64,000 nt of DNA from Patescibacteria group bacterium (lineage in GTDB: Bacteria > Patescibacteriota > Patescibacteriia > UBA2591 > CALHIP01). The stretch covers positions 63 through 64,062 of the forward strand of contig JAOACJ010000014.1 in the NCBI GenBank assembly GCA_026417895.1, in the 5' to 3' direction. Position 1 is the first letter of the stretch, and each line of letters opens with the position of its first letter. Shown piece after piece: positions 3,114 through 41,426 of the stretch. The translations under genes were made by a program, and so were the position numbers. Below the pieces are notes generated by a model. The model saw nothing but the letters and a program-made list of their open reading frames with translations. It searched no databases and was not told where the DNA came from.

Positions 3114-3157
3114 TTTTTTAAAAGAAAGAGTGTAAAAAAAATTAAAAGAAAATTTTT

Positions 3158-3487
3158 ATGCGGATTTGGGATGTGCCAATAGATTGTTTGTGTCGTAATC
3201 ATCTTTTAGGCGAACATAGAGAATTACATGCCATTTGGAATATTTTGATAAAAAAGAAAAAGGGGTTTTCCAAACATCCAGAAACATTAAGGTGGCGAGG
3301 AAAATTAAAGGCTCTTTACCTTAAACACGAAGCAATAGTTAGAGAGATGAAAAAACGAGGTTATCAACATCGATCATCTTTAAATAAAAAATTAGCCAAA
3401 GGTAAAGCTCAGCAATATGAATTTTGGCAGTCCAAGGAAGCACAAAAGATAATTTTAAAAAGAAAGTGTCGGCAGTGCGGAGTCTAA
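3158..3487 (+). CDS. pyrimidine-dimer DNA glycosylase-like (T4 endonuclease V family), short form
   Basis: The N-terminus 'MRIWDVPIDCLCRNHLLGEHRELHAIW' parallels T4 DenV '[28 protein letters not shown]'. The catalytic Glu of the 'REL' motif is conserved. Confidence 0.5.
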   Translation: MRIWDVPIDCLCRNHLLGEHRELHAIWNILIKKKKGFSKHPETLRWRGKLKALYLKHEAIVREMKKRGYQHRSSLNKKLAKGKAQQYEFWQSKEAQKIILKRKCRQCGV

Positions 3488-4801: not shown

Positions 4802-5194
4802 ATGGTCCAATTAAAACAGATTTATCGTTGTTCAATTTGCGGCAATGTTGTTGAAGTATTGCATGCTAGTGTTGGCCAATTAGTTTGCTGCGGAAAGCCA
4901 ATGGAACTATTGATAGAGAAAACGAAAGATATAGGAGCAGAGAAGCACGTGCCGATTATTGAAAAGAAAGAGGGTGGAATAAAGGTCAGAGTTGGTTCTA
5001 TTCCTCATCCGATGGAAGAGAAGCACTATCTTGAATGGATAGAATTAGTGGTTGACGGAAAGAGTTTTCGTCAGTTTCTCCATCCCGATCAAAAGGCCGA
5101 AGCTGAATTTTTAGTAAAAGTTGAAGAAGGAAGTAAAATTTTTGCTAGAGAATATTGTAATCTTCACGGTCTTTGGAAGGGGTTTGAGAGTTAG
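4802..5194 (+). CDS. dfx: desulfoferrodoxin / superoxide reductase
   Basis: N-terminal desulforedoxin '[11 protein letters not shown]...CCG' and centre II 'EKHVP...[14 protein letters not shown]'. The ORF-track upstream extension (from 4700) overlaps rbr and is rejected. Confidence 0.8.
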
Positions 5195-5622: not shown

Positions 5623-6780
5623 ATGATTAAAATGGCAAGTAATAATTTAAAAATTTCTGTTGTTTTGCCTTGTTTGAATGAAGAAAAAACCATCGGTGTT
5701 TGTTTGGAAAAAATAAAAAAGGCATTTGAAAAATATCATTTGGATGGCGAGATTATTGTTGTTGACAACGGTTCGACCGATCGGTCAGGAGAGATTGCTA
5801 AAAATTTAGGAGCAATTGTTGTTTTTGAGCCGAAAAGGGGATATGGTAATGCCTATCATCGAGGCATCGCCATGGCCAAAGGTGATTTTATTATTATTGG
5901 TGATGCTGATAATACTTATGATTTCGGCGAAATTGATAAATTTATTGGACCACTGAAAGAAGGTTATGATTTGGTCATAGGTAATCGTTTTTCCGGGTTA
6001 ATGAAAAAAAGAGCGATGGGGTTTTGGTCAAGAATTGGTAACCCAATTTTATCTAGCCTTTTGCGTCTATTTTTTCGAACAAAAATTCATGATGCTCACT
6101 GTGGAATGAGGGCTTTTACTAGAACAGCCTATGATAAATTGAATTTACAAACTACTGGGATGGAGTATGCTTCAGAAATGATTGTCAAAGCCATTTGGCA
6201 AAATTTAAAAATAAAAGAAGTACCGATTACTTATTATCCGCGAGTAGGCGAGTCAAAACTTTCTCCTTGGCGCGATGGTTGGCGTCATTTAAAATTTATG
6301 TTAATTTATGCTCCTAATTGGCTTTTTCTTGGGCCCGGGATATTTTTATTTTCCATTGGCCTGTTTCTTTTAATAGCGATGACTTTTGGTGAATTAAGGA
6401 TTGGCAAAGTAATTTTGCACCTTCATCCGATGTTCTTAGGCGCGCTTTTGGTTTTGCTAGGCTATCAAGTTTTTTCTTTTGGTCTTTTAACTAAACTTTA
6501 CGCTTATTCACAAAAATTAATGCCGCGCAGTAAATTAGTTGATTTTTATCTAAAATATTTTTCTTTGGAAAAATTAATTTTTATTGGTCTGTTATTTTTT
6601 TTTGTCGGCCTAGGTTTAGGCATCTCTGTTTATCTTATTTGGGCGCGCGGTGGTTTTGGGGCTTTGTTTGAAGTGAGAAAATCACTAACCTCGATTACTT
6701 TAATGATTCTGGGAATGCAAATTATTTTTACTGGTTTCTTTTATCATATTTTAAGAATCGGTCTGAAGGGACACGAATAA
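5623..6780 (+). CDS. family 2 glycosyltransferase with C-terminal membrane domain (DPM/GtrB-like)
   Basis: 'ISVVLPCLNEEKTIG', 'VVDNGSTDRS', 'GDAD' DxD-like motif, C-terminal TM helices. Confidence 0.75.
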   Translation: MIKMASNNLKISVVLPCLNEEKTIGVCLEKIKKAFEKYHLDGEIIVVDNGSTDRSGEIAKNLGAIVVFEPKRGYGNAYHRGIAMAKGDFIIIGDADNTYDFGEIDKFIGPLKEGYDLVIGNRFSGLMKKRAMGFWSRIGNPILSSLLRLFFRTKIHDAHCGMRAFTRTAYDKLNLQTTGMEYASEMIVKAIWQNLKIKEVPITYYPRVGESKLSPWRDGWRHLKFMLIYAPNWLFLGPGIFLFSIGLFLLIAMTFGELRIGKVILHLHPMFLGALLVLLGYQVFSFGLLTKLYAYSQKLMPRSKLVDFYLKYFSLEKLIFIGLLFFFVGLGLGISVYLIWARGGFGALFEVRKSLTSITLMILGMQIIFTGFFYHILRIGLKGHE

Positions 6781-6790
6781 ATTCAAAAAA

Positions 6791-7318
6791 ATGATTCCAT
6801 TATCTTTTATTTTTCTTTTCTTAAAGTTATTATTGGTTGTTTTTGTTATTATTTTACTTCTAACCTTTTCGCTGCCATTTTTTGGTGGCGTACCTTATGT
6901 ACCAACCCCAGAAAAAAGAGTCAAAAAAATGTTAGAATTGGCTCAATTGAAACAAGGTGAAAAGTTAGTTGATTTAGGTTCGGGCGATGGCCGGATCTTA
7001 ATTGAGGCGGCGAGAATAGGAGCGGAGGCTGTTGGTTATGAAATTGATCCTTTATTAGTTTTGACAAGTAAGAAACTGATAAAAAAGGAAGGATTAGAAA
7101 ATAAAATAAAAATTTATCGAAAAAGTTTTTGGCAGGCCGATTTAAAAGATGCTGACGTGGTGACCTTTTATGGTATCACGGGTATTATGGGGCGGATGGA
7201 AAAAAAATTATTAAGAGAATTAAAGCCAGGCGCTCGTGTTTGTTCTTATGTTTTTGCTTTTCCGCGATGGGAGCCGGTTCGTTACGAATCAGGAATTTTT
7301 TTATATCAAAAATCTTAA
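6791..7318 (+). CDS. class I SAM-dependent methyltransferase
   Basis: Motif I 'LVDLGSGDGRILIEAA', N-terminal TM segment. Confidence 0.6.
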   Translation: MIPLSFIFLFLKLLLVVFVIILLLTFSLPFFGGVPYVPTPEKRVKKMLELAQLKQGEKLVDLGSGDGRILIEAARIGAEAVGYEIDPLLVLTSKKLIKKEGLENKIKIYRKSFWQADLKDADVVTFYGITGIMGRMEKKLLRELKPGARVCSYVFAFPRWEPVRYESGIFLYQKS

Positions 7319-7458
7319 ATTTTAAAAAAGTTATCCACAAATTAATTTTTTTTGACTTATTTTTTATTTTTTTTATAATTACAAAATGATTAAACAATTT
7401 AGCCAAAATTTAGCCAAAGAGAAAAAACTTTCTTGATTTACCAAAAAAATTTTCTGAC

Positions 7459-25956: not shown

Positions 25957-28014
25957 TTATAATTCTATCTCAACAATCTGTGACCTATTAAGCAGCCAGA
26001 TCTTTGTTTCTTTTTCGTCAACAAAAAGATCTTTTAGATCAGTAAATTTTTCCGAAGTGATTTGTTTGATCAATTTTCCGTTTTTATCTAAAAGAACAAT
26101 TCTTTTATTTTCCGGTTCTAAGAGATAAATATATTTAAAATCTGGCTGAGTAAGAATCTTCGTCACTTTTTTTATTTCTGGATAAACCCTTTCTTGATCA
26201 AATTTTGATTTTCTACCTAAATAAAATTTTAAAATTTCACCATTCTCTTTTAAAAGATAAATTGAACCATCAATAGTCAATGAAACGATGTTTTTTAAAT
26301 CTACTTTTTCTTTTAACCAATTTGATTCTTGACCAAAACCTTCTTCTAATTTTAAATATTTAAAAATTTGATTATTTTTTTGATCTAGAATATAAAGTTT
26401 ATGGTCGTAGATTTCTAAATCACTGATTGATAACTCTTTTTGTTTGGTTTCTAATTTTAAGGGAGAGATTTTTTTATTTCTTTGATTAAAAAGATAAATT
26501 TTATTCCCTGCCAATAAAATCAATTCGTCTGTTGTATAATTTAAAAATTTTTGTAGAGACAAATCTAATTTGACCAGCGAAGAGGCCCTTCCTATTTTTT
26601 GATCAAAGTCATAAATTTCTTTTAATCTTTTATTAAAAACAAAAAATTTATTATTTTGGAAAGAAAAATTTTCAAACTGACCATTTTTATCCAGAGAAGA
26701 AAGGCTAGTGACTATTTTTGGCTCAGCAATTTTTTCAATTTTATAAAGTTTCTCTAAACTTTCTTCAAAATTATTTTTTAGATTGTTAAAAATTTCTTTT
26801 TCCCAGACTGATTTGGGTTTCAGAAAAATAATTTTATCTTCTATCTCCTTGGCGAGAGTTAAAGCATTTTTTTGGTCAGCATAAATAAGGCTGGCCTTAA
26901 GAAGAGTAATTTTTTCTTGAACCTCCTGAAAGGTTTGGAAAAACTTGGGATTAATTCGGTCTCTATTAACTAAATGAAGGAAATTAAGAATCATCATAAC
27001 GATTAGAATGGTCAATAGAAAAGAGGTAAATTTAATTTTAGGGCGTGGCATTTGCTTGAAAAGGGAGAGAAAAGCATTGAAAATTGGAGGGAAAAAAGAG
27101 AGAGAGATTTTCGGAAGTTTTAGGCTTGGTTTTTTTTCTGGTTTTTTAAAGGGCTCTTCTTTCTTATTGCCATGAATAAAAATTTCTTTTACTTCTTCCT
27201 TGGTCGACTGAACGATGATTTTTGTTGGTACACTAACTGGTTTTATTTCTTCGGTCAAAATTTTTGGCTTTTCTTTTTCTTCGGTGACAAGAGTGGCGAT
27301 TTCCTTTGTTTTTCTCTCTTTCTCTTTTTTAATTAAAAAAACACCGATAGAAATTTCTTCTTTTAAATTTTCTAACGATCTTTCTAAATTTTTCATAGCC
27401 ATCGCCATAGGCGATTTAAATAAACAGTCCCTCAATTTTTCAAAATTAAAATAATCTAAAAAATTGTCCGTAGCAAAAATGAGGAGATCATTTTTTTCTA
27501 AACTGCCACTGATGATTTGGGTGAAGGTTTTAAATGATGTCTGATAACTCTTCTCAGCTGGCTGATAGAGAGGAAGCATTTTATCTTTTCTTAAAATAAA
27601 AGCTTGCATCAGACCAACGGGTGAGAAATAAATTTTTTCTTCTTTGATGACAGCGACGATGGCATTAAGATTTCTAACTAATTTTTCAAAAATTTTTGAA
27701 CCGATAATTTCTTGAGAAATGAGACGGTTAACTTTTTGTAAAGCATTTTCTAAAACTATTTCGACATTATCTGACTCTTTTAAATTTTCAGGTGTGTAAT
27801 AGTTAGTTTTTAAACCATTAATAATAATTTCGGAAACCTCTTTGGTTAAAGAATGAATATTTTTTTCTAGATTAGGCGGAATAGCTAATTGAATTAAAAA
27901 AATAGTTTCTCCTAAAAGTTTTTTATGAAGAGTTGGTGGGACAAAATGCTGTGATTCGACAACGAGATTATTTTTTTTAGGATTAGACAAACAAAATTTT
28001 GAAATTTCTAGCAT
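25957..28014 (-). CDS. hypothetical membrane protein (N-terminal cytoplasmic domain, central TM, C-terminal beta-rich domain)
   Basis: ORF with internal TM 'FTSFLLTILIVMMILNFL'. No confident family. Confidence 0.4.
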   Translation of the reverse strand: MLEISKFCLSNPKKNNLVVESQHFVPPTLHKKLLGETIFLIQLAIPPNLEKNIHSLTKEVSEIIINGLKTNYYTPENLKESDNVEIVLENALQKVNRLISQEIIGSKIFEKLVRNLNAIVAVIKEEKIYFSPVGLMQAFILRKDKMLPLYQPAEKSYQTSFKTFTQIISGSLEKNDLLIFATDNFLDYFNFEKLRDCLFKSPMAMAMKNLERSLENLKEEISIGVFLIKKEKERKTKEIATLVTEEKEKPKILTEEIKPVSVPTKIIVQSTKEEVKEIFIHGNKKEEPFKKPEKKPSLKLPKISLSFFPPIFNAFLSLFKQMPRPKIKFTSFLLTILIVMMILNFLHLVNRDRINPKFFQTFQEVQEKITLLKASLIYADQKNALTLAKEIEDKIIFLKPKSVWEKEIFNNLKNNFEESLEKLYKIEKIAEPKIVTSLSSLDKNGQFENFSFQNNKFFVFNKRLKEIYDFDQKIGRASSLVKLDLSLQKFLNYTTDELILLAGNKIYLFNQRNKKISPLKLETKQKELSISDLEIYDHKLYILDQKNNQIFKYLKLEEGFGQESNWLKEKVDLKNIVSLTIDGSIYLLKENGEILKFYLGRKSKFDQERVYPEIKKVTKILTQPDFKYIYLLEPENKRIVLLDKNGKLIKQITSEKFTDLKDLFVDEKETKIWLLNRSQIVEIEL

Positions 28015-28087: not shown

Positions 28088-28468
28088 ATGATTTTAGTTA
28101 TTAATACTTCGATAAAACCGTATTTTATTGCCTCAGCGACAAAGAGAAAGATAAAAATTTTTTATCTTAAAGATGAAGATCTCAACATTTTAGTTCAATT
28201 AGAACAATTTTTAAAGAAAAACCAAATTAAATGGAATCAAATTTCTGGTCTTGTTATAGTTCCCGATTATCTTTCTTTTACTCGACAAAGAATTATAATT
28301 ACAGTGGCTAATATTTTGGGTATTTTTTTAAATTTAGCCGTGGGTTTAGTCAATCAAAACGAATTTCAAAATATGGAAGAATTAATCAAGATCGGACAGA
28401 AGAGGTTGAGAAGAGGAACGATTCCTTTAGTTTATCATAAAGAGCCAAACATTACTACCAGTCGTTAG
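28088..28468 (+). CDS. TsaB/YeaZ-like N-terminal domain protein (short)
   Basis: 'MILVINTS' and 'GLVIVPDYLSFTRQRIIITVANILG' resemble the TsaB GPGSFTGxRIG region. Confidence 0.4.
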   Translation: MILVINTSIKPYFIASATKRKIKIFYLKDEDLNILVQLEQFLKKNQIKWNQISGLVIVPDYLSFTRQRIIITVANILGIFLNLAVGLVNQNEFQNMEELIKIGQKRLRRGTIPLVYHKEPNITTSR

Positions 28469-28525: not shown

Positions 28526-28617
28526 CCCCAAATTATCCACAACCCAAAATTGACTAGTGGAAAAAAATGGGGTATTGTGTATTCGATGAATATAATTGTG
28601 GATAAATGTGGGGATAA
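28522..28617. promoter_or_regulatory. cluster of DnaA-box-like 9-mers (TTATCCCCA, TTATCCACA, TGTGGATAA, TGTGGGGATAA)
   Basis: One perfect TTATCCACA on the plus strand and one on the minus strand, plus two one-off variants, all within 96 bp. An AT-rich stretch lies upstream. Confidence 0.4.
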
Positions 28618-28679
28618 GTCAGCGAAATTGTGAATAAGTGCCGATTTTGTCTGAACGTTAGTGAAGATACAGAATCGAG

Positions 28680-28797
28680 CACCCCGCCCTTATTCCAACA
28701 ATAAACTTACAAAATATAGAAAGTAAAAGGCGAAGCCGCCTTACAGTTTTCATCTTTGTAAATCACAAGTTTTTCGAGAGAATAAGTGCGGGGTACG
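28680..28797 (+). ncRNA. conserved structured element, copy 1 (mraZ leader)
   Basis: 5' 'caccccgcccttattcc...aaaaggcgaagccgcc' and a 3' complementary arm 'gaataagtgcggggtacgg'. About 80% identical to the minus-strand element at 39226-39311. Confidence 0.35.
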
Positions 28798-28860
28798 GAA
28801 TTTTGTCCTAAAATTTCCATCGCTCTGCTCTGCGCGCTCGTAAATTTTAACCAAATTCGT

Positions 28861-29292
28861 ATGTTTATTGGCGAATACCACTATAAACTTGATGAAAAGG
28901 GAAGGTTAGCTATTCCTCCTAAATTTCGTTTAAGCTTTAAAAAGGGAACGGTTGTGACACGGGGCCTTGATAATTGTCTTTTTCTCTACCCAAAACCAGA
29001 ATGGCAAAAATTGGCTTTAAAGCTTTCTCAATTGCCTATTAGTAAAGCAAAAACAAGAGCTTTTGGTCGCTTAATGTTAGCCGGAGCAATGGATGTGATT
29101 TTAGATCGTCAGGGGAGAATTATTTTACCTGACTATTTAAGAAACTATGCCAAAATCAAAAAAAATGTTGTCATTGCTGGTCTCTATAACCGATTAGAAA
29201 TTTGGGATGAAAAAGAATGGGAGGAGTATAAAAGACAGTCAGAAAGAGAAAGTAGGGATATTGCCGAAACTCTAGGTGAATTAGGTGTCTAA
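28861..29292 (+). CDS. mraZ: transcriptional regulator MraZ
   Basis: 'MFIGEYHYKLDEKGRLAIPPKFR', duplicated SpoVT-AbrB-like halves. The ORF-track start at 28786 is rejected. Confidence 0.85.
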   Translation: MFIGEYHYKLDEKGRLAIPPKFRLSFKKGTVVTRGLDNCLFLYPKPEWQKLALKLSQLPISKAKTRAFGRLMLAGAMDVILDRQGRIILPDYLRNYAKIKKNVVIAGLYNRLEIWDEKEWEEYKRQSERESRDIAETLGELGV

Positions 29293-33681: not shown

Positions 33682-33744
33682 AATCTAGAAGACAGGAGAA
33701 AGCAGCTCATTGTCAAAAAGAAAGGATTGATTAAAATAAAAAAT

Positions 33745-33817
33745 GGCCCTGTCATCTAGTGGTTTAGGATACATGGTTCTCAACCATGTCACACGGGTTC
33801 GAATCCCGTCAGGGCTA
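33745..33817 (+). tRNA. tRNA-Glu (anticodon CUC)
   Basis: Manual fold. Acceptor ggccctg/cagggct (G1·U72), T-arm 'acggg-ttcgaat-cccgt', anticodon arm 'catgg-ttCTCaa-ccatg', 4-nt variable loop. CCA is not encoded. Confidence 0.75.
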
Positions 33818-34588
33818 AATTGATTTCTGGTGAAAAATTATTTTTAAAAAGAACATTAAAGAAAGACCAAGTACAATAAAAACAAATTGGATGAATGATT
33901 TCTTGAGAGAAGTTTCTTTTTTTAATTCCGGAATTAAATCTGAACCAGCCAAGTAAAGAAAACCGCCAGCGGCAAAAGGCAGCAGATAATTAACTAAAAA
34001 ACCTAAGGCGTTGCTCAATAATAAAGTGATGACTGCCCCTAAAAAGGCACTTAAGGCAGAGAGAAAATTGAAAAATAAAGCCCGCCATTTAGAAAATCCA
34101 CCATAGATTAAAACACCAAAATCACCAATTTCTTGAGGAATTTCGTGAAAAATTACAGCCAAGGTTGTACTAAGACCCAAAGGAAAACTTATTAAATAAG
34201 CTCCAGCCATAATACTGCCATCAATAAAATTGTGAACGGCATCACCAATAATATTGAGATAGGTAAGAGGGTGTGGATGACTAGCGGTAGTAGGCAGGTG
34301 ACAATGTCGCCAGCCAATAAATTTTTCTAAAATAAAAAAACCCAAAAGACCAATCAAAAGTAAAAAGGCCGTTCTTTTGCCAAAACCAAATTCTTCAACT
34401 GCTTCAGGGATTAAATGGAAAAAGGCACTGCCAAATAAACTACCGACTGAAAAACTGACTAAAAAAAGTAAAATTTTTTTTAATTTCTCCTCACTGATGG
34501 CAAAGGTAAAAACACCAATTAGTGAGACGAGACTGATAATTAAAACGGAGATAAAAACTGTTAACCAAATCATATAAATTAAAACCAT
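33815..34588 (-). CDS. ZIP-family metal transporter (ZupT-like)
   Basis: 'HEIPQEIGDFGVLIYGG', His-rich TM helices. Confidence 0.75.
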   Translation of the reverse strand: MVLIYMIWLTVFISVLIISLVSLIGVFTFAISEEKLKKILLFLVSFSVGSLFGSAFFHLIPEAVEEFGFGKRTAFLLLIGLLGFFILEKFIGWRHCHLPTTASHPHPLTYLNIIGDAVHNFIDGSIMAGAYLISFPLGLSTTLAVIFHEIPQEIGDFGVLIYGGFSKWRALFFNFLSALSAFLGAVITLLLSNALGFLVNYLLPFAAGGFLYLAGSDLIPELKKETSLKKSFIQFVFIVLGLSLMFFLKIIFHQKSI

Positions 34589-35733
34589 TTTAGAAGAAGA
34601 CCGAGGGCTAAAATTAACAAGATTAAACCTGAGGCAAGACGCATATATTTTTTAAACTTGGCTCGCCAAACTTCCATTTGATCAGCCTTTTCAATAGCCA
34701 CTGATACCAAGGCCATCATCAGTAACAGTGGCACGATAAAGAAAAAATTATACCAAAAGAGATATGGAAAAATATATTTTGTTCTTTCCGCTAAGATTGT
34801 CACATAGACCAGCGGAATACCTGAAGAACAGGGTAATTCTACCAGCGAGCTAAAGAAAGCCAAAATAATAGCACTTGGCATTGTCCCTTTTTGAATTAAT
34901 TTTTGAATAACAAAACGAGACTTAGTCGGAATTTCTAAAGAAACAAATTTATTATAAAAAAAGAAATCTTTCAGCATTAATAAAGCCACAATCAGAGCCA
35001 AGAAACCAATAATCATTTTAACAGTTGAAATTAAACCAATAAAATGGAATAAGTTAAAGATACCATACATAAAAAGGAAATAAACTATAAAGACCGTCAG
35101 GACAAAAACCAAACCAAGACCTATCGCCCTTTTTTTTGAGCCAATGGCTAAGAGATAGGTTAATAAAAATAAAAAGACCATCAACAGACAAGGGTTGATA
35201 CCGTCAATCAAGCCGAGAATCATACCTAAAAAAAGTGTTGATTTTTTTAAACTAAAAGTAATTTCTTTGCCCAAAAAATTAATTTTTGTTTGATCGCTTT
35301 TAACTGGAACAATCTCTTTTGGTTTAGGCATTTGTAACAATGTCTGCTCAATTTGATGAACCGGACAGGTATAATTTGGGTCCTTGAGACACTCTTGAAT
35401 AGTCTTTTCTAAATTGTTTCGAATGGCGGTTGAACCAATAAAATATTGATGACCGACAAAGAGAACCGGGACAACGGCCATTTTAATTTTGTATAATTCC
35501 CTCAATTTATCATAAAGTTTGACACTCAATTCTTCTGTTAAAGAATGTTCCTCAAAGATGATATTATATTTTTCTGCCATGGCTTTAACAAAAGGTTTAA
35601 TCTCTTGACAATGAGGACAGCTGGGCAAGGTAAAGAGATGAATAAAAATTGGTTCATTAGCTTGACTATAAAAAGGAAGAAAAAAGGAAAACAGAAAAGA
35701 GGAAAGAGAAATAACAAAAAGTATTTTCTTCAT
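34579..35733 (-). CDS. thioredoxin-like domain fused to DsbD/CcdA-type membrane disulfide transporter
   Basis: N-terminal 'LPSCPHCQE' CxxC, then a polytopic domain with 'GINPC' and 'LPCSSGIP' cysteines. Confidence 0.6.
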   Translation of the reverse strand: MKKILFVISLSSFLFSFFLPFYSQANEPIFIHLFTLPSCPHCQEIKPFVKAMAEKYNIIFEEHSLTEELSVKLYDKLRELYKIKMAVVPVLFVGHQYFIGSTAIRNNLEKTIQECLKDPNYTCPVHQIEQTLLQMPKPKEIVPVKSDQTKINFLGKEITFSLKKSTLFLGMILGLIDGINPCLLMVFLFLLTYLLAIGSKKRAIGLGLVFVLTVFIVYFLFMYGIFNLFHFIGLISTVKMIIGFLALIVALLMLKDFFFYNKFVSLEIPTKSRFVIQKLIQKGTMPSAIILAFFSSLVELPCSSGIPLVYVTILAERTKYIFPYLFWYNFFFIVPLLLMMALVSVAIEKADQMEVWRAKFKKYMRLASGLILLILALGLLLKWF

Positions 35734-35797
35734 AACCTTCTATTTTAAAGAAAAATAAAAATTTGACAAGAGAAGAATGGTTGATTAAAATATTAAG

Positions 35798-36277
35798 ATG
35801 ACCTTTACTCTTAAAAAATATCCTGATCCAATTCTTAGAAAAAAAGCCGAGGCTATCAAAGAAATCAACGAAGAAATAAAAAAAATTGCTCAGCTCATGA
35901 TCGAAGTAAAAGAAAACAGTCAAGGCCTTGGTTTAGCCGGCCCTCAAATAGGTATTTTAAAGAGAATTATTGCTGTAACGACAGAAAAGGGTCCTCAAAT
36001 TTTTCTTAATCCGGAGATTTTAGCCAAAAGTAAGAGACAAGAAATAATGGAAGAAGGTTGCTTGAGCTTTCCTGGTTTATATTTAAAAATAAAAAGACCG
36101 ATTGAAGTTGAAATTAAAGCCCTCAACTTAAATGGTCGAGAATTAAAGTTTAAGGTCCAAGGCTTAACGGCTAGAATTTTCCAGCATGAAATAGATCATT
36201 TAAACGGGGTGCTTTTTATCGACCGATTGCCTTGGTGGCAAAGAGCAAAACTAAAAATAAAAAGACTGCGGGATTAG
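35798..36277 (+). CDS. def: peptide deformylase
   Basis: 'EGCLSFPG', 'QHEIDHLNG'. Confidence 0.9.
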   Translation: MTFTLKKYPDPILRKKAEAIKEINEEIKKIAQLMIEVKENSQGLGLAGPQIGILKRIIAVTTEKGPQIFLNPEILAKSKRQEIMEEGCLSFPGLYLKIKRPIEVEIKALNLNGRELKFKVQGLTARIFQHEIDHLNGVLFIDRLPWWQRAKLKIKRLRD

Positions 36278-36338
36278 TATAGTGGCAGTACGCTTGCTTC
36301 CCAAGCAAGAGGCGCCAGTTCGATTCTGGTATCCCGCT
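36268..36338 (+). tRNA. tRNA-Gly (anticodon CCC)
   Basis: Manual fold. Acceptor gcgggat/atcccgc, D-arm gtat/gtac, anticodon arm 'cttgc-ttCCCaa-gcaag', T-arm 'gccag-ttcgatt-ctggt', discriminator U. The 5' end overlaps the last 10 nt of def. Confidence 0.75.
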
Positions 36339-36350
36339 TTTTGTTTTCTT

Positions 36351-36839
36351 TTATCGCGTGATGGAAATATTCGTCGCTGGTGCCTCGGCTCCACAGGCCC
36401 CAACCGTTACTCGACCACCTTCTACTTTTACCGCATAATAGCTAGTATTAGCTGTGCCATTAACTGGATCTGACGGTCGGGTGGAAAGGTAGGTGGGGAC
36501 AAGGGCACTGATAAAATCTTGACCGGTACATCCTTTATTGATAGTGCCAAGATCACCTTTACTACAATCAATGTTGCATTCAGCGGCAGAGGTAGCATTG
36601 CCAATGACTTTTGCGTCTGAGGTTAAACCAGATGGCCAGGAACCGTTATTGTCAATATAATACTGAAAAATGGCATTGAGGATAGCCAAGATATCATTTC
36701 TTCGAGCAGCATTTCTTGCTTGAGCTAATTGCCTGGTCGGATTAACAGCGACAATGACAATGCCGGTCAAAATTGAAATAATGCCAATGACAACCAGAAG
36801 TTCGATAAGAGTAAAACCCTTTTTCTTTTTCATACTCAT
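36351..36839 (-). CDS. type IV pilin (major pilin candidate)
   Basis: Canonical prepilin leader 'MSMKKKKG|FTLIELLVVIGII'. Confidence 0.75.
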   Translation of the reverse strand: MSMKKKKGFTLIELLVVIGIISILTGIVIVAVNPTRQLAQARNAARRNDILAILNAIFQYYIDNNGSWPSGLTSDAKVIGNATSAAECNIDCSKGDLGTINKGCTGQDFISALVPTYLSTRPSDPVNGTANTSYYAVKVEGGRVTVGACGAEAPATNISITR

Positions 36840-36844
36840 AATTT

Positions 36845-37921
36845 TTATTTCTTCAATAGATTTATCTCGACTTTTTGAAAATCTTTTTCTAAGGCTCTCA
36901 GAGCCAAACCGATAACATTAGCCGATAAAATTCTTTTTTCTTCTTGAGCCAAAAAATCACCCTTGATATTTGTTAATGGTTCGCCCCTCGTTGTCTCCAA
37001 ACCAAGTTTTTTTTGAAAATAAGCACTAATGCCTGGCAGTAAACTTGAACCACCAGCCAGAATAATTTTTTTAACTTGATGGTAGGTCGTCTGCTGGTAA
37101 AAGATTAAAATCCTTCTTGCTTCATCAATAATTGGTAGCGCTTCCTTTTTCAAAACTTGTTCTACCTTGGGATATTTCTGAGGACGAAAGCCTTCTGCCA
37201 CTTTTATTTTTTCTGCCTCTTCAAAAGATAAACCAAGAGCTTCTGAGACTTTTTTAGTAAAAAGATTACCAGCGACACGAAGATAATGGTTGAAAACTAA
37301 TCCTCTTTCGTCAAAAAGACTAAAAACACTTGTTCTCTGACCAATATCAATAATCAATATACCTTCATCCTTTGGAATCTCTTTGATTAAAGCTCGTCTC
37401 AAAGAAAGCGGTTCTAAATCAAAAACTATTGGTGTTAAATGAGCAATTTTCAAGGTTTCTTGCCAGTCATCAATTAACTCTTTTCGACAACCAGCAAAAA
37501 AGACTTGTTGGATTTTATTTATTTTACCAATAATTTGAAAATCTGTGTAGAGTTGGGATGTGGATAAAGGAAAAACTTGTTCGGCTTCATAGATTAAGGC
37601 TTCGGAAAGCTCTTTCTGAGTTAAATTGGCGGGTAGTTGAAAAAGATAAGTAAAAACCTGAGAGCTGGGTAAAGAAAGCAAACAAAATTTTTCTTTAATT
37701 GGCCTTGGTTTCGCTTGATCGAGAACCTCTCTAATGTTTTTCGCTAACTCATTTTTTTCTTTAATTAAACCATTTTCTACTAACTGAGCTGATGGTAATT
37801 CTTTATGACCATAACTTTCAATTTCTATTTTACTTCCTTTTCTTTTTAAAATTAAAGCTTCAATCGAGGTATCAGAAACATCTAAACCAAAAGCTTGTTT
37901 TTTTTGGAAACCAAATAACAT
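36845..37921 (-). CDS. pilM: type IV pilus assembly protein PilM
   Basis: Actin-like ATPase fold, 'FGLDVSDTSIEALIL'. Confidence 0.75.
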   Translation of the reverse strand: MLFGFQKKQAFGLDVSDTSIEALILKRKGSKIEIESYGHKELPSAQLVENGLIKEKNELAKNIREVLDQAKPRPIKEKFCLLSLPSSQVFTYLFQLPANLTQKELSEALIYEAEQVFPLSTSQLYTDFQIIGKINKIQQVFFAGCRKELIDDWQETLKIAHLTPIVFDLEPLSLRRALIKEIPKDEGILIIDIGQRTSVFSLFDERGLVFNHYLRVAGNLFTKKVSEALGLSFEEAEKIKVAEGFRPQKYPKVEQVLKKEALPIIDEARRILIFYQQTTYHQVKKIILAGGSSLLPGISAYFQKKLGLETTRGEPLTNIKGDFLAQEEKRILSANVIGLALRALEKDFQKVEINLLKK

Positions 37922-37955
37922 AAATTAGCAATGGGAATTTGAATATTGTCTTATC

Positions 37956-39161
37956 TTATTGTCCTATTTGCCCAATAAATTGATAAATTGGCAGAATAAT
38001 GGAAACGGCTAAGAGACCAACACCCAGACCAATAATAATCAGTAAAATTGGTTCAAGGACACTGGTTAAATTTTTAATCGTTCGATCAACCTCAGTTTCA
38101 TAGAAATCAGCTAAATAATGAAAAGAATCTTCAAGGTTACCAGTTTTTTCCCCGACATTCAAAATTTTTGCTACTGATAAAGGAAATTCTTGGGGAAAGT
38201 TTTCTAAATTTGAGGCAAGGGTTTCGCCGCGTCGAAGAGCGGGAATAATTTTTTCTAAAGTTTTTTTATAAACTTCGTTACCGATTGTTTCAGCGACAAC
38301 TTCAAGAGATTTCGGTAGAGTCAGTCCACTTTTTAAAAGCGTCTCACTCGTTCGGGCAAATTGAGCCAAATTATTATTTTTTGTCAATCGACCAAAAATG
38401 GGTAGTTTAAGATAAAGAATGTGCAAAATCGATTTTATTCTCCTCAGTTGAGAGAGAAACCGAAAAACAATGACTAAGAGGATTAGACCAATAAGAATAA
38501 AAAGTGTATTTTTAGCGAGAAAGTTCATAATAGAGAGAAAAATTTTAGTAATCAGAGGAATAGAAACATCAAGTTTCGCAAAAAGACTAAGAATTTTTGG
38601 TAAAAGAAACTGAGAAAGTGCCAAAGAAAGAAGAATAGCCACGATCACCACAATCGTTGGGTAGGTGAGACTGGCTTTGACCTTTTTTTTCAATTCATAT
38701 GATTTTTCTAATTGTTCAGCCAGATAGACAAGAGAAGATTCTAAAGTACCACTTGACTCAGCTGTTTTAATGACACCAATAAAAAGAGGAGAGAAGTATT
38801 TTGGATAAAGAGCAAAAGAAGAGGATAAAACTTCTCCTTGCTCAACCCTTTTTTGAATTTCCGCCAGAATAGTTTTTAATTTTAAATTTACAGTTTGTTC
38901 AGAAAGAGTTTTTAAAGATTCGCTCAAAGAGAGGCCACTCTTAATCATCATCTGTAAATTTCTGACTAAATTGATTTTTTCTAATTCTGAAATGCGACCA
39001 AAACTGAAAAGAGGTTGTCTTTTCACCCTCTTTGGTATTAAAGAAATAATAATCAAGTCTTGGACTAAAAGCATTTTGGCGGCTTCATCTTTATTAGCTG
39101 CCTCAATTTCTCCTTTTTTTATTTGTCCGGCTTTAGTGGAAACAGTGTATTGAAAAAGCAT
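37956..39161 (-). CDS. pilC: type IV pilus platform protein PilC (GspF family)
   Basis: Two GspF repeats, three TM segments. Confidence 0.85.
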   Translation of the reverse strand: MLFQYTVSTKAGQIKKGEIEAANKDEAAKMLLVQDLIIISLIPKRVKRQPLFSFGRISELEKINLVRNLQMMIKSGLSLSESLKTLSEQTVNLKLKTILAEIQKRVEQGEVLSSSFALYPKYFSPLFIGVIKTAESSGTLESSLVYLAEQLEKSYELKKKVKASLTYPTIVVIVAILLSLALSQFLLPKILSLFAKLDVSIPLITKIFLSIMNFLAKNTLFILIGLILLVIVFRFLSQLRRIKSILHILYLKLPIFGRLTKNNNLAQFARTSETLLKSGLTLPKSLEVVAETIGNEVYKKTLEKIIPALRRGETLASNLENFPQEFPLSVAKILNVGEKTGNLEDSFHYLADFYETEVDRTIKNLTSVLEPILLIIIGLGVGLLAVSIILPIYQFIGQIGQ

Positions 39162-39225
39162 ACCAATTTTCTTATCTCTTAAAAATTTTAAGATATCATT
39201 GAAAAAATTTTTACTAGAAAATTGA

Positions 39226-39311
39226 GTACCCGCGTACAGGGCCGTTAGGCGGTTTCGCCTTTAGTCTTTCTCTGTCGGAAGTTTATCGCTGGAATAAGTG
39301 CGGGGTAAGGG
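39226..39311 (-). ncRNA. conserved structured element, copy 2 (pilB-pilC intergenic)
   Basis: The minus strand reads 'cccttaccccgcacttattccagcgataaacttcc...aaaggcgaaaccgcctaacgg...gtacgcgggtac'. Same orientation relative to its downstream gene as copy 1. Confidence 0.35.
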
Positions 39312-39364
39312 TTTTCTGGATAAATTTTCTACAACTTTTGTCTTGAAAATTTATATAAAATTCT

Positions 39365-41056
39365 TTATTTAGTTACTCTTAAAACCTCTTCAACTGTTGT
39401 TAAACCCAAAAAGACTTTTTCTAATCCATCTTCAATCATCGTCGTCATTCCTTTTTGACAAGCCAGAGTTCTTATTTCGTCGGTATTTGCCTTTTGCATA
39501 ATTCTTTCTTTAATTTCTTCTTCTGGTTCCAACACTTCAAAGATACCAGTTCGTCCTGCATAACCAGTTTGATGACAAGCTTCACAACCAAGACCATGGT
39601 AAATTCTTATTTTTTCCTTATTTTGAATTGATTTTAAAAAGCGAGTTGGTAAATTACCAACACCGCTGAGTAAACTAAGAAATTCTTTCTGACTAATTTC
39701 TTCACTGACAATACACTTTCGACAGATAAGCCTGACTAGTCTTTGGGCAATGATGACATTGACTGTCGAAGCAATTAAAAACGGCTCAATGCCCATATCC
39801 ATTAGCCTAACTATGGTTGTCGGCGCATCATTGGTGTGCATCGTCGAAAGAACAAGATGGCCGGTCAAGGCGGCATTAACAGCAATGCCAGCTGTTTCTT
39901 GATCTCGAATTTCACCAACCATTAGAATATCGGGGTCTTGTCTAACTAAAGCCCTTAACCCTTGAGCAAAGGTTAAATTTGTTTTTGGATTAACTTGAAT
40001 CTGATTAACGCCCTCAATGTCATATTCAACCGGATCTTCAATAGTGGCAATATTAATATCTCTTTTATTGAGAATTTTTAAAATGGCGTAAAGGGTAGTG
40101 GTTTTACCACAACCAGTTGGTCCGGTAGCTAAAATCATTCCCCACGGCTTTTCAATATTAGCTCGGACAACTTTTTCATCTTTTGCTAAAAAACCAAGAT
40201 CTTCTAAATTAAAACGTCTGATCTTTTCGGAAAGCAATCTTAAAACTGCCTTTTCTCCTTTAGTCACCGGAACAATCGAAACACGGATATCAACTTTTTC
40301 ATTTTCGAATGTTTCTGAAAATCGACCGTCTTGAGCGGCAAAATGCTCATCAGTTCTGAGTTTAGCCAAAAGTTTAATTCGGGAAATAATATAATCATGA
40401 ATATCTTTTGGCAATTCTAAAACATCATGAAGAATTCCGTCAATTCTGAATCGGACAACTGTTTTTTTCTCAAATGGTTCGAAGTGAATATCTGAAACTC
40501 GATTTTGATAAGCGTAATTAATAATTGTGTCTAAAATTTTAATGATCGGCAACTCTTTTTCCTCCTCTTCTGCTTTTTTAGTATATTCTTCAATCAGATT
40601 TTGAAATTCTTGCTTTAATCCCTTTTTGTATCGGACTAGATTTTCTTTTAAATCTTTTTCGGTCGCATAATAAGGGATAACTTTAAAACCAGTCTTTTTT
40701 TCGATTAAAGAAATAATCTCTAAATCTCCCGGATTATTCATTGCTAGCTTAATTTTCATTCCTTTTAGATCTTGACCGAAGGCCATTACCTTTTGTTTTT
40801 TAGCCACCACTTCTGGAATTATATTTAAATCATCTTCTTTAATAATTTCTTTTTTTAAATTGACAAAAGGATAGCCAAGAAATTCTGCTTTGAGTTGTCC
40901 TAACTGTTCATCGCTCATTTTGCCTGAGCTGATAATTAACTCCTCTAAATTTTTGTTTTCTTCTTGAGCTTGTTTCTCTAAATTTTGAAAATCTTCAGGA
41001 CTTAAAAATCCCGGCTCAACTAGAATTTTCTTCAATTGTTCACTTGTTAGTTCCAT
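39365..41056 (-). CDS. pilB: type IV pilus assembly ATPase PilB (GspE family)
   Basis: Walker A 'GPTGCGKTTT', tetracysteine 'CRKC...CEAC'. Confidence 0.9.
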   Translation of the reverse strand: MELTSEQLKKILVEPGFLSPEDFQNLEKQAQEENKNLEELIISSGKMSDEQLGQLKAEFLGYPFVNLKKEIIKEDDLNIIPEVVAKKQKVMAFGQDLKGMKIKLAMNNPGDLEIISLIEKKTGFKVIPYYATEKDLKENLVRYKKGLKQEFQNLIEEYTKKAEEEEKELPIIKILDTIINYAYQNRVSDIHFEPFEKKTVVRFRIDGILHDVLELPKDIHDYIISRIKLLAKLRTDEHFAAQDGRFSETFENEKVDIRVSIVPVTKGEKAVLRLLSEKIRRFNLEDLGFLAKDEKVVRANIEKPWGMILATGPTGCGKTTTLYAILKILNKRDINIATIEDPVEYDIEGVNQIQVNPKTNLTFAQGLRALVRQDPDILMVGEIRDQETAGIAVNAALTGHLVLSTMHTNDAPTTIVRLMDMGIEPFLIASTVNVIIAQRLVRLICRKCIVSEEISQKEFLSLLSGVGNLPTRFLKSIQNKEKIRIYHGLGCEACHQTGYAGRTGIFEVLEPEEEIKERIMQKANTDEIRTLACQKGMTTMIEDGLEKVFLGLTTVEEVLRVTK

Positions 41057-41057
41057 A

Positions 41058-41426
41058 TTAAAGGTGTTTTTTTATTCTTTCCACTACTTCCGGCAGTGAT
41101 TGTTGAGATTTAACAAGATAATCAACGGCGCCAAATTTCAAAGCTTTTTCCCGATCTTGTTCTTGACCCAAACAGGAAAGAATGATAATTTTTGTTTCTT
41201 TTATCTTATCACTTTTTTGTTTTTCGGCCAAAAATTCAAAACCATCCTTTTGGGGCAAAATCAAATCAAGGACAATCAAATCATATTTTTTTTCTTGAAT
41301 TTTTTTTAGGGCCTCTTCACCATTAAAAGCTGTTTCAACCTCTAAATTAGTCTCAGAACTAGCTAACTTTGAGGCCAAAAGTTTGGCCAAAAATTGATCA
41401 TCCTCAACAATAAGAATTTTTTTCAT
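41058..41426 (-). CDS. response regulator, receiver domain only (PilH/CheY-like)
   Basis: 'ILIVEDDQF...DLIVLDLILPQKDG'. Confidence 0.8.
   Translation of the reverse strand: MKKILIVEDDQFLAKLLASKLASSETNLEVETAFNGEEALKKIQEKKYDLIVLDLILPQKDGFEFLAEKQKSDKIKETKIIILSCLGQEQDREKALKFGAVDYLVKSQQSLPEVVERIKKHL

Follow-up and report, generated by a model that had tools for sequence, protein, structure and literature searches.

The 64,000-nucleotide stretch of a Patescibacteria contig analysed here (the window) carries two related intergenic hairpins, one ahead of mraZ and the other ahead of pilC. We conclude, with a probability of roughly 0.7, that these are an intact copy (copy 1) and a decayed copy (copy 2) of a non-autonomous mobile hairpin family of the Patescibacteria (candidate phyla radiation, CPR), resembling both MITEs (transposable elements of the miniature inverted-repeat type) and the intervening sequences (IVSs) of rRNA genes. 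Four features typical of MITEs occur together: a non-coding unit of 110–120 bp, terminal inverted repeats, copies in unrelated places (two of them in the window), and presence/absence polymorphism at an orthologous site. The first-pass annotation of this DNA had read the two copies as a riboswitch or attenuator; that reading is refuted by the evidence below. The family appears to be undescribed so far—we found no report of CPR MITEs or hairpin repeats of this sort in the literature—and MITE-like repeats and IVS-like hairpins are, as kinds, already known.

The likeness of the two stretches is real and beyond chance; only the identity had been put too high, at about 80%. A global alignment of 28681–28748 on the forward strand with the reverse complement of 39241–39306 gives 52 identical columns out of 69, or about 75%. 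A 28-nt core pattern is confined to copies 1 and 2 within the 64 kb (0.00 expected from 100 shuffles), and the shared core with its internal GGCG-AARC-CGCC hairpin was located in both copies where the annotation had placed it, in the gene contexts that it had described. Copy 1, the palindromic hairpin that we call H1, ends in ACCCCGCCCTTATTCCAACAATAAACTT and, on the other strand, ACCCCGCACTTATTCTCTCGAAAAACTT, which form inverted repeats of about 28 nt; the proposed pairing of its 5' arm with a downstream arm holds at 14 of 15 positions. Its RNA fold (125 nt) reaches -36.2 kcal/mol (z = -5.0), and our covariance model, R1, scores it at 86 bits (E = 1e-15). Copy 2 retains the left arm and the central GGCGAAACCGCC hairpin, with the right arm reduced to GTACGCGGGTA; it scores 32 bits (E = 6e-4) and folds no better than shuffled sequence (z = -0.4). 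Neither the core pattern nor Blast nor the covariance model located a third copy in the window.

Outside the window, the main scan compared the apical 21-mer AAAGGCGAARCCGCCTWRCRG with one genome per GTDB species and gave 65 loci, about 45 of which are Patescibacteria hairpins of 110–120 nt in about 25 genomes. Among these are Saccharibacteria, the Uhr-, Azam-, Yanofsky-, Lipton-, Berkel-, Wildermuth-, Portnoy- and Sungbacteria, and Paceibacterota, with at least 6–7 copies within single metagenome-assembled genomes (MAGs; DAOWLE01, CBDVEN01, and CAYPCM01). The other loci, about 20, were set aside as unrelated: one coding gene from Acidobacteriaceae, a repeat of another kind from Flavobacteriales, and a few GC-rich genomes that match by chance. 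The 5'-arm pattern CCCGCNCTTATTCCANNNATAAAC, used for an initial scan of genomes, had no matches; in metagenomes a pattern of the same type gave one locus (L010, a JGI contig, antisense to its neighbouring genes), and the single match in the viral collection (L084) is unrelated. R1 recovers further members without the exact 21-mer (L047b, L034b, L040b, L010, and L011). Rfam 15, searched at gathering thresholds with the window and 34 loci, returned only tRNAs and rRNAs and no match to the element, and at E <= 10 the copy region returned nothing relevant.

In every Patescibacteria locus the 21-mer lies in the middle of the unit, which is closed by a stem of 13–19 bp. The stem begins near CCCC(G) and ends with (C)GGGG; the rest of its sequence is wholly genome-specific, as in CCCCGCCCTAATCC, CCCCGTTAGAAGTC, CCCTTCACTAATCT, GCCACACCTATTCC, and CCCCTCACCTACTGG. 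The interior is imperfectly paired and variable, with no conserved open reading frame (ORF). Pairing in the stem is conserved all the same: in an alignment of 44 sequences (A3), 94.5% of stem cells are paired, compared with 78.7% after column shuffles and 31–54% when the partner is slid, and all 15 of 15 pairs show double changes (146 double-change cells versus 43 in shuffles). The annotation had proposed a conserved, structured, non-coding element and a search for further copies and covariation, and on both points it was borne out, with about 45 elements and strong covariation of the long stem. Counts of G·U and A·C mismatches in the stem, used as a test for the strand of function, were 27 and 16. 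The arms are similar among copies of one genome and are shared there with elements having other, AT-rich centres. Such sister hairpins with the same genome-specific arms lie at 3461–3570 of L043, 4978–5090 of L022, 5586–5692 and 5807–5915 of L021, and 5929–6032 of L076; several begin exactly at the discriminator base of a tRNA (...GCGCCCA, then CCCCG where CCA would stand), and in L027 a tRNA pair is bracketed by two family copies.

The mraZ locus allows an orthologous site to be compared with and without the element. We examined the mraZ regions of relatives whose MraZ proteins are 84–90% identical to that of the window, where copy 1 sits in a block of three hairpins (h2'-H1-h2). The block has no counterpart in the mraZ leaders of L001, L003, L005, L009, L014, L085, and L089 (alignments A2 and A6; no R1 match). 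In these seven, mraZ is separated from the upstream ORF by a spacer of about 180–210 nt, with the same TTGACT-17-TAnnGT site and phased boxes (TGTGGATAAATGTGGGGATAAGT ... GTGGATAA), and the box array is followed by about 20–35 AT-rich bases and then the ATG. In the window, an extra block of about 215 nt (approximately 28642–28859) separates the third box from the ATG. The same place is filled in L086–L088 (MraZ 85% identical) and in L012/L013 (90%), so that three lineages are filled and seven are empty. The L086 element is decayed, with a right arm short by 12 nt and GCCGCC changed to GCTACC in the apical block; that of L012 is intact but diverged, and its stem (TACCCAGCACATATTT/AAATATGTGCTGGGTA, 16/16 paired) differs from the stem of H1 by three compensatory double changes. 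L011, whose MraZ protein is the same as that of L012, has a different inverted-repeat element of about 150 nt at the H1 site of its mraZ leader (3131–3276, GGGTAGTTGCCTCAAAAAC...GTTTTTTCAGCAACATACCC) and, upstream of the promoter and in the opposite orientation, a member of our family (E5). The mraZ leader thus looks like an insertion hot spot.

Elsewhere, the surroundings of the copies also point to movement as DNA. A rough calling of ORFs places 39 of 50 copies between genes, and the remainder mostly lie over doubtful ORFs; the neighbouring genes are ordinary or housekeeping genes (DHH, Wzz, MiaB-like, DUF5667, and ThiI-like). Direct repeats of 4 nt bracket 13 of 47 copies when boundaries are set automatically and about 20 when judged by eye, whereas random re-pairing of the flanks gives 2.7 and at most 8; such repeats are missing at the window copies and their subfamily. 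Counting the outermost A/T, the repeats are TTGA (about ten times), TCAA (about six), and TTTA (about six). TTGA almost always continues as CA—13 of 94 ends continue outward as TTGAC, where 0.11 are expected—and the outward TTGACA is followed by a good -10 hexamer 16–17 nt further on. This is the pattern expected of insertion between TTGA and CA of a -35 hexamer with a 4-bp duplication, the length that we would assign to the target site. When the apical blocks are brought into one orientation, the abutted promoters occur on both sides, and the sequences of their spacers differ among copies of one genome, which argues that they are resident promoters and not cargo. In L048, L025, L076, and others the -10 box of the abutted promoter stands just 5–8 nt before an ATG, which suggests that leaderless mRNAs are common in these genomes.

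Two further members of the family lie inside rRNA genes, both in the sense orientation. In L041, the element at 6450–6568 takes the place of the loop at the apex of a 23S hairpin (Rfam LSU 573–600, insertion between 583/584), which is helix 25 by its flanking sequence; in L036, positions 6126–6247 hold 103 nt in place of a 4-nt loop of the 16S hairpin at SSU ~1149–1172 (~1157–1162), helix 40. A sister element with the same arms and another centre replaces 5 nt with 90 nt in the loop of the LSU 131–150 hairpin of L041 (138/144), helix 9. The 23S gene of L041 (JAZDKA010000011.1, 5824–8000) therefore has two hairpin insertions with identical arms, AT-rich at the centre in helix 9 (90 nt) and with a GC-rich apical block in helix 25 (about 100 nt); the 16S gene of L036 (JAHJMO010000012.1) spans 5773–7388. 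The classical IVS sites are helices 9, 25, and 45 of 23S rRNA, where the insertions have complementary termini that form stems, undergo excision by RNase III, and have an origin that is still called unclear (PMC4990558). Our rRNA copies are alike in their sites, long stems, complementary termini, length (about 90–105 nt), and sense orientation, and the sporadic distribution and suspected transposon origin of IVSs match as well (PMC4990558). However, classical IVSs are described only within rRNA genes, rarely those for 16S, whereas this family is mostly intergenic and multi-copy, and the window copies lie outside rRNA. Many insertions shorter than 200 bp and lacking an ORF were recorded at IVS sites of CPR rRNA genes in a 2024 survey, which left them uncharacterised (PMC11270868). 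These are neither introns nor ORF-bearing and are particularly frequent in Saccharibacteria and at positions known from IVSs, and the insertions of L041 and L036 are of that kind; the survey, however, describes no shared sequence or structure and no copies beyond rRNA genes (J Bacteriol 2024, PMC11270868). Since its members occupy both IVS sites and spacers, the family links the rRNA insertions to a dispersed intergenic repeat.

We can now return to the riboswitch or attenuator reading. Copy 1 does share with such elements a strong structure and a place in a 5' leader; it lies within that of mraZ, since a promoter-like site precedes it. The family, in contrast, lacks positional conservation, conserved alternative helices, and a fixed orientation, its downstream genes are unrelated, and no Rfam family matches it. 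For control of mraZ and pilC, the element is missing from too many relatives, namely from 7 of 10 close mraZ leaders. Nor is the sense orientation fixed, as expected of a riboswitch: co-directional spacers contain 16 sense and 7 antisense copies, and family members often stand ahead of a -35 hexamer, beside tRNAs, or in rRNA genes. The proposed switch had rested on a segment upstream of copy 1 that could pair with the 5' arm in place of its downstream partner. The complementarity exists ('gaataagtgc', 28632–28641, 9/10), but the segment consists of the third GTGRATAA box and the first bases of a flanking hairpin, and the box occurs in relatives without the element. In L012, the equivalent stretch is not complementary to the 5' arm, and the whole of the 184 nt upstream contains no complement longer than a 7-mer, a chance match at a different position. 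Because the box is independent of the element and L012 has no equivalent complement, a conserved two-state switch is unsupported. The annotation had itself named an inverted-repeat mobile element, such as a MITE, as the finding that would undo it, and this is essentially what emerged; a leader-RNA effect may nonetheless exist in the window subfamily.

This subfamily is a mosaic of hairpins. A hairpin of about 60 nt, h2 (CAATTTTGTAGTAAAATTT...AAATTTTAACAAAATTG), follows H1 in the window copies and in L012, L015, L011, L019, L045, and L053, the last with a GC-rich sequence in which pairing is retained. RNAalifold on eight h2 sequences gives 19 pairs, 14 of them with compensatory changes. The 3' arm of h2 ends 1–3 nt before the ATG of mraZ, pilC, a proS-like gene (MKQSELFTKTLRE), rplU (MAKLAVIKTGGKQY), and one further gene; no Shine-Dalgarno sequence or promoter was seen at the junction of h2 and the start codon. 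No promoter was found inside H1 or h2, and the 'TAAATT' in h2 belongs to the structure and is no -10 box, because GC-rich L053 has paired GC sequence there. On the side opposite h2 there is often another hairpin, h0 or h2', with the motif AAAACCTTT; h0-like modules also flank L045, L010, and L015, and the L086 orthologue of h2' retains the hairpin with a different inner sequence. The whole block h2'-H1-h2 folds at -61.6 kcal/mol (z = -3.7). The apical block points one way relative to its flanks in E1, E3, and E5 and the other way in E2, L019, L045, and L053, which suggests inversion between the arms, as in Correia elements (PMC10969869).

Several observations weigh against a mobile, MITE-like family. 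First, the apex is fixed across the phylum and the sequence of the stem is free, whereas a typical MITE conserves its terminal repeats; this suggests a function of the apex that the MITE model does not supply, although the invariance is partly a matter of ascertainment, the family having been fished with a 21-mer from this block. Second, the three compensatory stem changes between the window element (E1) and its orthologue E4 imply selection or self-correction for pairing at the mraZ locus. Third, the unit inserted at mraZ is about 215 nt and not 114 nt, and no clean target-site duplication was found at the two window copies (CA/TA); the sole resemblance to one is the direct similarity ATTTTGTC on both sides of the window block. 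Fourth, the adjacency of h2 to start codons in the window subfamily is striking, and there is a mild sense bias (16:7). Finally, no transposase or autonomous element with matching ends was seen in about 0.5 Mb of fetched loci, including the ORFs beside and between copies; in these loci the arms pair only about 110 nt apart.

Some of these points would be explained if H1 and h2 formed a cis-acting leader RNA—a cassette of the 5' untranslated region that controls translation start or mRNA processing and has spread by recruitment. The sense placement of H1-h2, with h2 just before the ATG of five unrelated genes, the covariation of h2, the survival of H1 pairing between the window and L012, the sense bias, and the sense orientation of both rRNA copies are all in keeping with such a cassette. 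We nevertheless consider it unlikely: most close relatives lack the element before an essential operon, it is decayed both at pilC and in L086, many copies are antisense or stand ahead of a -35 hexamer (outside the transcript), and the unrelated downstream genes share no regulatory logic, with no alternative helix conserved. The sense bias, moreover, may stem from selection against the antisense orientation, in which a T-rich tail comes after a terminator-like hairpin. An independently transcribed small RNA or a self-cleaving ribozyme carried on a mobile unit is the least probable of the alternatives, and we give it very little weight. The long closing stem, the conserved core, and the many copies recall some ribozyme-bearing repeats, but there is no Rfam match even at E <= 10, the element has no promoter or terminator of its own that we could find, conservation takes the form of one contiguous apical block and is not scattered over internal loops, and the element decays at two loci.

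The apical block itself, AAAGGCGAAGCCGCCUWRCGGCU, is near-invariant over its 23 nt. Members found by other routes than the 21-mer (E3, E5, L047b, L034b, and L040b) have 2–6 changes in it, and the flanking GGCU and the whole block are retained while stems and interiors have diverged to saturation. The rare variants conflict with every single secondary structure that we tried: E5 (GGC to GAC with GCC to GUC), L047b (GCC/GGC to GCU/AGC), and L040b (GAC-UUC-GUC) fit two 3-bp mini-hairpins, variants with A at the R position fit GGCG/CGCC, and L034b fits AGCCG-N5-CGGUU. Judged from these sequences, constraint on the sequence itself, for instance as a protein site in RNA or DNA, seems more likely than constraint on a helix. 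Two further readings of the block were rejected: its resemblance to domain V of group II introns (GAGCCGUA...) leaves the lower stem unpaired, and the apical hairpin is terminator-like on the antisense strand only and in AT-rich copies only. One proposal that would account for the constraint is a DNA module, in which the 23-bp block, with its partial dyad AGCCG-N5-CGGCT, binds a conserved CPR protein and serves for insulation, as an upstream element, or in organising the nucleoid. The block is invariant amid changing surroundings, no one RNA structure suits its variants, the elements abut -35 boxes in either orientation, and the functional IHF site within Correia elements sets a precedent (PMC10969869). 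Against this, the copies in rRNA genes and 5' leaders are not promoter-proximal, no candidate protein is known, and sister elements with the same arms and a different centre occupy similar places; we regard such a module as quite improbable.

We therefore favour the non-autonomous MITE-like/IVS-like family as the explanation, and it can be put as a tentative sequence of events. The palindrome would be mobilised by a putative enzyme acting in trans, and would enter TTKA sites with a short duplication, -35 hexamers in particular, as well as the loops of hairpins. A three-hairpin block with copy 1 would have entered between the mraZ promoter and operator boxes and the ATG, and a second block, since decayed, between pilB and pilC. 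Because the element folds back on itself, it would be tolerated, even in rRNA loops. Once transcribed—in the mraZ leader, the pilB–pilC spacer, or rRNA genes—its stem of 15–19 bp is a plausible substrate of RNase III, by analogy with Correia elements and rRNA IVSs. If transcription starts from the promoter-like site at 28550–28578, the leader of mraZ would grow through the block from about 75 nt to about 275 nt, and between operator boxes and start codon it would gain a site for processing or stability, not a ligand sensor; effects on the expression of mraZ or pilC are likewise putative. A more specific version sees a self-propagating hairpin spread over the whole phylum, whose invariant 23-nt apex is recognised by a conserved CPR protein, either a structure-guided transposase or recombinase or an RNA-processing factor; this hairpin would dock on -35 hexamers and loops and would be the mobile source, long sought, of short ORF-less rRNA IVSs. 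This version is possible, though we hold it doubtful.

Comparison with known repeat systems places the family near, but not within, several of them. For Correia elements, the MITEs of Neisseria, we know of no identified transposase. They are likewise non-coding units of about 100–200 bp with terminal inverted repeats, present in many copies, most of which stand immediately upstream of genes; they interact with promoters, have an IHF site at their centre, give transcript hairpins that RNase III cleaves at the repeats, and can be inverted (PMC10969869). In contrast to our family, with its free, genome-specific stem and 4-bp flanking repeats, they conserve the sequence of their repeats and duplicate TA. 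Our family has a GC-rich apex without an IHF-like motif, abuts resident promoters in place of carrying them, and has no sequence similarity to Correia elements. The ERIC/IRU elements of enterobacteria are imperfect palindromes of about 127 bp that are intergenic, co-transcribed, conserved in their central part across genera, and variable in copy number (in part from PMC10969869); however, there is no sequence relation, and the conservation of ERIC extends along the full element, not just its apex, and it is not known from rRNA. REP/BIME repeats with RAYT are also interspersed extragenic palindromes arranged in mosaics, as is the three-hairpin block of the window, but REPs measure 20–40 nt, have a 5' GTAG, and exceed 100 copies, whereas our elements measure 110–120 nt and have no GTAG; membership was rejected on the defining motif and length. 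A Klebsiella REP contains AAGGCGAAGCCGCC, a 14-nt match that is most likely due to chance. Integron attC sites (R''/R' core sites RYYYAAC ... GTTRRRY, cassette arrays, IntI) were rejected too: the ends here are CCCCG...CGGGG, GTTGACA misfits GTTRRRY, and the copies stand singly beside housekeeping genes. From textbook MITEs the family departs in that its ends are free in sequence, its apex is fixed phylum-wide, it docks at -35 hexamers, and it occupies rRNA IVS sites too.

CPR bacteria have very small genomes and are thought to be poor in repetitive DNA. One hairpin family is nonetheless present in a minimum of about 25 lineages at species level, extending from Saccharibacteria to Uhr-, Yanofsky-, and Berkelbacteria, where it breaks assemblies, reshapes the 5' leaders of core operons (dcw and type IV pilus), and sits against promoters. 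The breaking of short-read assemblies is evident in L015, a relative at pilC (77%): its contig opens within a related palindrome (ACCCCGACCGCGGTCGGGGTA), 79 nt ahead of pilC, next to which comes a flank homologous to the corresponding one at copy 2, and its termini (1–21 and 4815–4870) both lie inside such palindromic elements. Interspersed MITE-like repeats and rRNA IVSs, so far treated separately, are linked by the family; if this link is true, the origin of IVSs becomes testable, and annotators gain a model with which to recognise such insertions. The invariant apical block points to a conserved interaction, and, should the recognition of the apex by a protein prove true, non-coding elements would have a novel means of moving, and of being tolerated, in tiny genomes. 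The features discussed are listed in Table 1.

Table 1. Positions of hairpins, arms, apical blocks, and promoter-associated sites in the window, with promoters that abut family members elsewhere.
Feature	Position	Strand	Evidence or remarks
H1, copy 1, intact palindromic hairpin, 114 nt	28681..28794	+	Inverted ends, fold, covariance model R1
Terminal stem, left arm ACCCCGCCCTTATTC	28681..28695	+	Pairs with 28780-28794 at 14/15 positions (one mismatch)
Terminal stem, right arm GAATAAGTGCGGGGT	28780..28794	+	Partner of 28681-28695
Copy 1 apical conserved block AAAGGCGAAGCCGCCTTACAG	28726..28746	+	Exact 21-mer class, about 45 elements in about 25 Patescibacteria genomes
H1, copy 2, degraded	39227..39306	-	Left arm and apical block retained, right half deleted, remnant GTACGCGGGTA
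Copy 2 apical block AAAGGCGAAACCGCCTAACGG	39242..39262	-	Shared hairpin
Three-hairpin block h2'-H1-h2	28642..28859	+	Alignments A2 and A6; missing in seven close relatives
h2' flanking hairpin, 9-bp stem CGATTTTGT/ACAGAATCG	28642..28678	+	Left of H1; -14.8 kcal/mol, z = -3.4
h2 of copy 1	28798..28859	+	Between H1 and the mraZ ATG (28861)
h2 of copy 2	39163..39225	-	Ends 1-2 nt before the pilC ATG (39161-39159)
h0 hairpin, 10-bp perfect stem ATAAATTTTC/GAAAATTTAT	39320..39354	-	Far side of copy 2
mraZ promoter-like site TTGACT-17-TATTGT	28550..28578	+	Kept in relatives
Phased box array (TGTGGATAAATGTGGGGATAAGT ... GTGAATAAGTGCCG)	28596..28643	+	Kept in relatives without the element; includes 28632-28643, earlier called a second partial copy
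Promoters abutting elements			L047b TTGACA-17-TATAGT; L048 TTGACA-17-TAAAGT; L060 TTGACA-16-TATAAT; L063 TTGACA-17-TAGAAT

The array in front of mraZ consists of GTGG repeats phased at 10 bp (GTGGATAAAT GTGGGGATAA GT) and a third box, GTGAATAA. Because the array is conserved in relatives, its boxes are probably MraZ operator repeats. The region 28526–28643 also contains perfect DnaA-box-like 9-mers, TTATCCACA at 28534–28542 and TGTGGATAA at 28598–28606; a reading of the upstream boxes as DnaA boxes of a replication origin was rejected, as they are conserved with the mraZ promoter in all relatives, the GC skew shows no switch, and MraZ operator repeats fit better.

A further repeat came to light among the loci that we set aside. 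In the Flavobacteriales MAG WGAP01 (L049, L068, L077, L078, L080, and L083), the 21-mer belongs to an unrelated multi-copy repeat in which AAAGGCGAAACCGCCTTGCGGGTTCGCCG is followed by GC-rich repeats; L042, also from WGAP01, has the 21-mer with a GGGTTCGCCG continuation, but a different GC-rich left flank.

As for the neighbouring genes, mraZ (28861–29292, forward strand) is followed by rsmH, an ftsL-like ORF, and ftsI. Upstream of it lie two ORFs without a Pfam match, 25957–28014 on the reverse strand (685 aa) and 28088–28468 on the forward strand (126 aa), both syntenic in all relatives examined (656–710 aa and 114–138 aa there). Past the dcw genes, 33744–41426 holds tRNA-Glu, tRNA-Gly, and a type IV pilus cluster (pilM, pilC, pilB, and a response regulator); pilB (39365–41056), pilC (37956–39161), and pilM are on the opposite strand, with the block of copy 2 between pilB and pilC. 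Downstream of murE, L001, L003, and L005 have miaA, rpmA, and argS in place of this pilus cluster, which indicates a local rearrangement. The PilC protein of the window has a single close homologue in the protein collection (77%).

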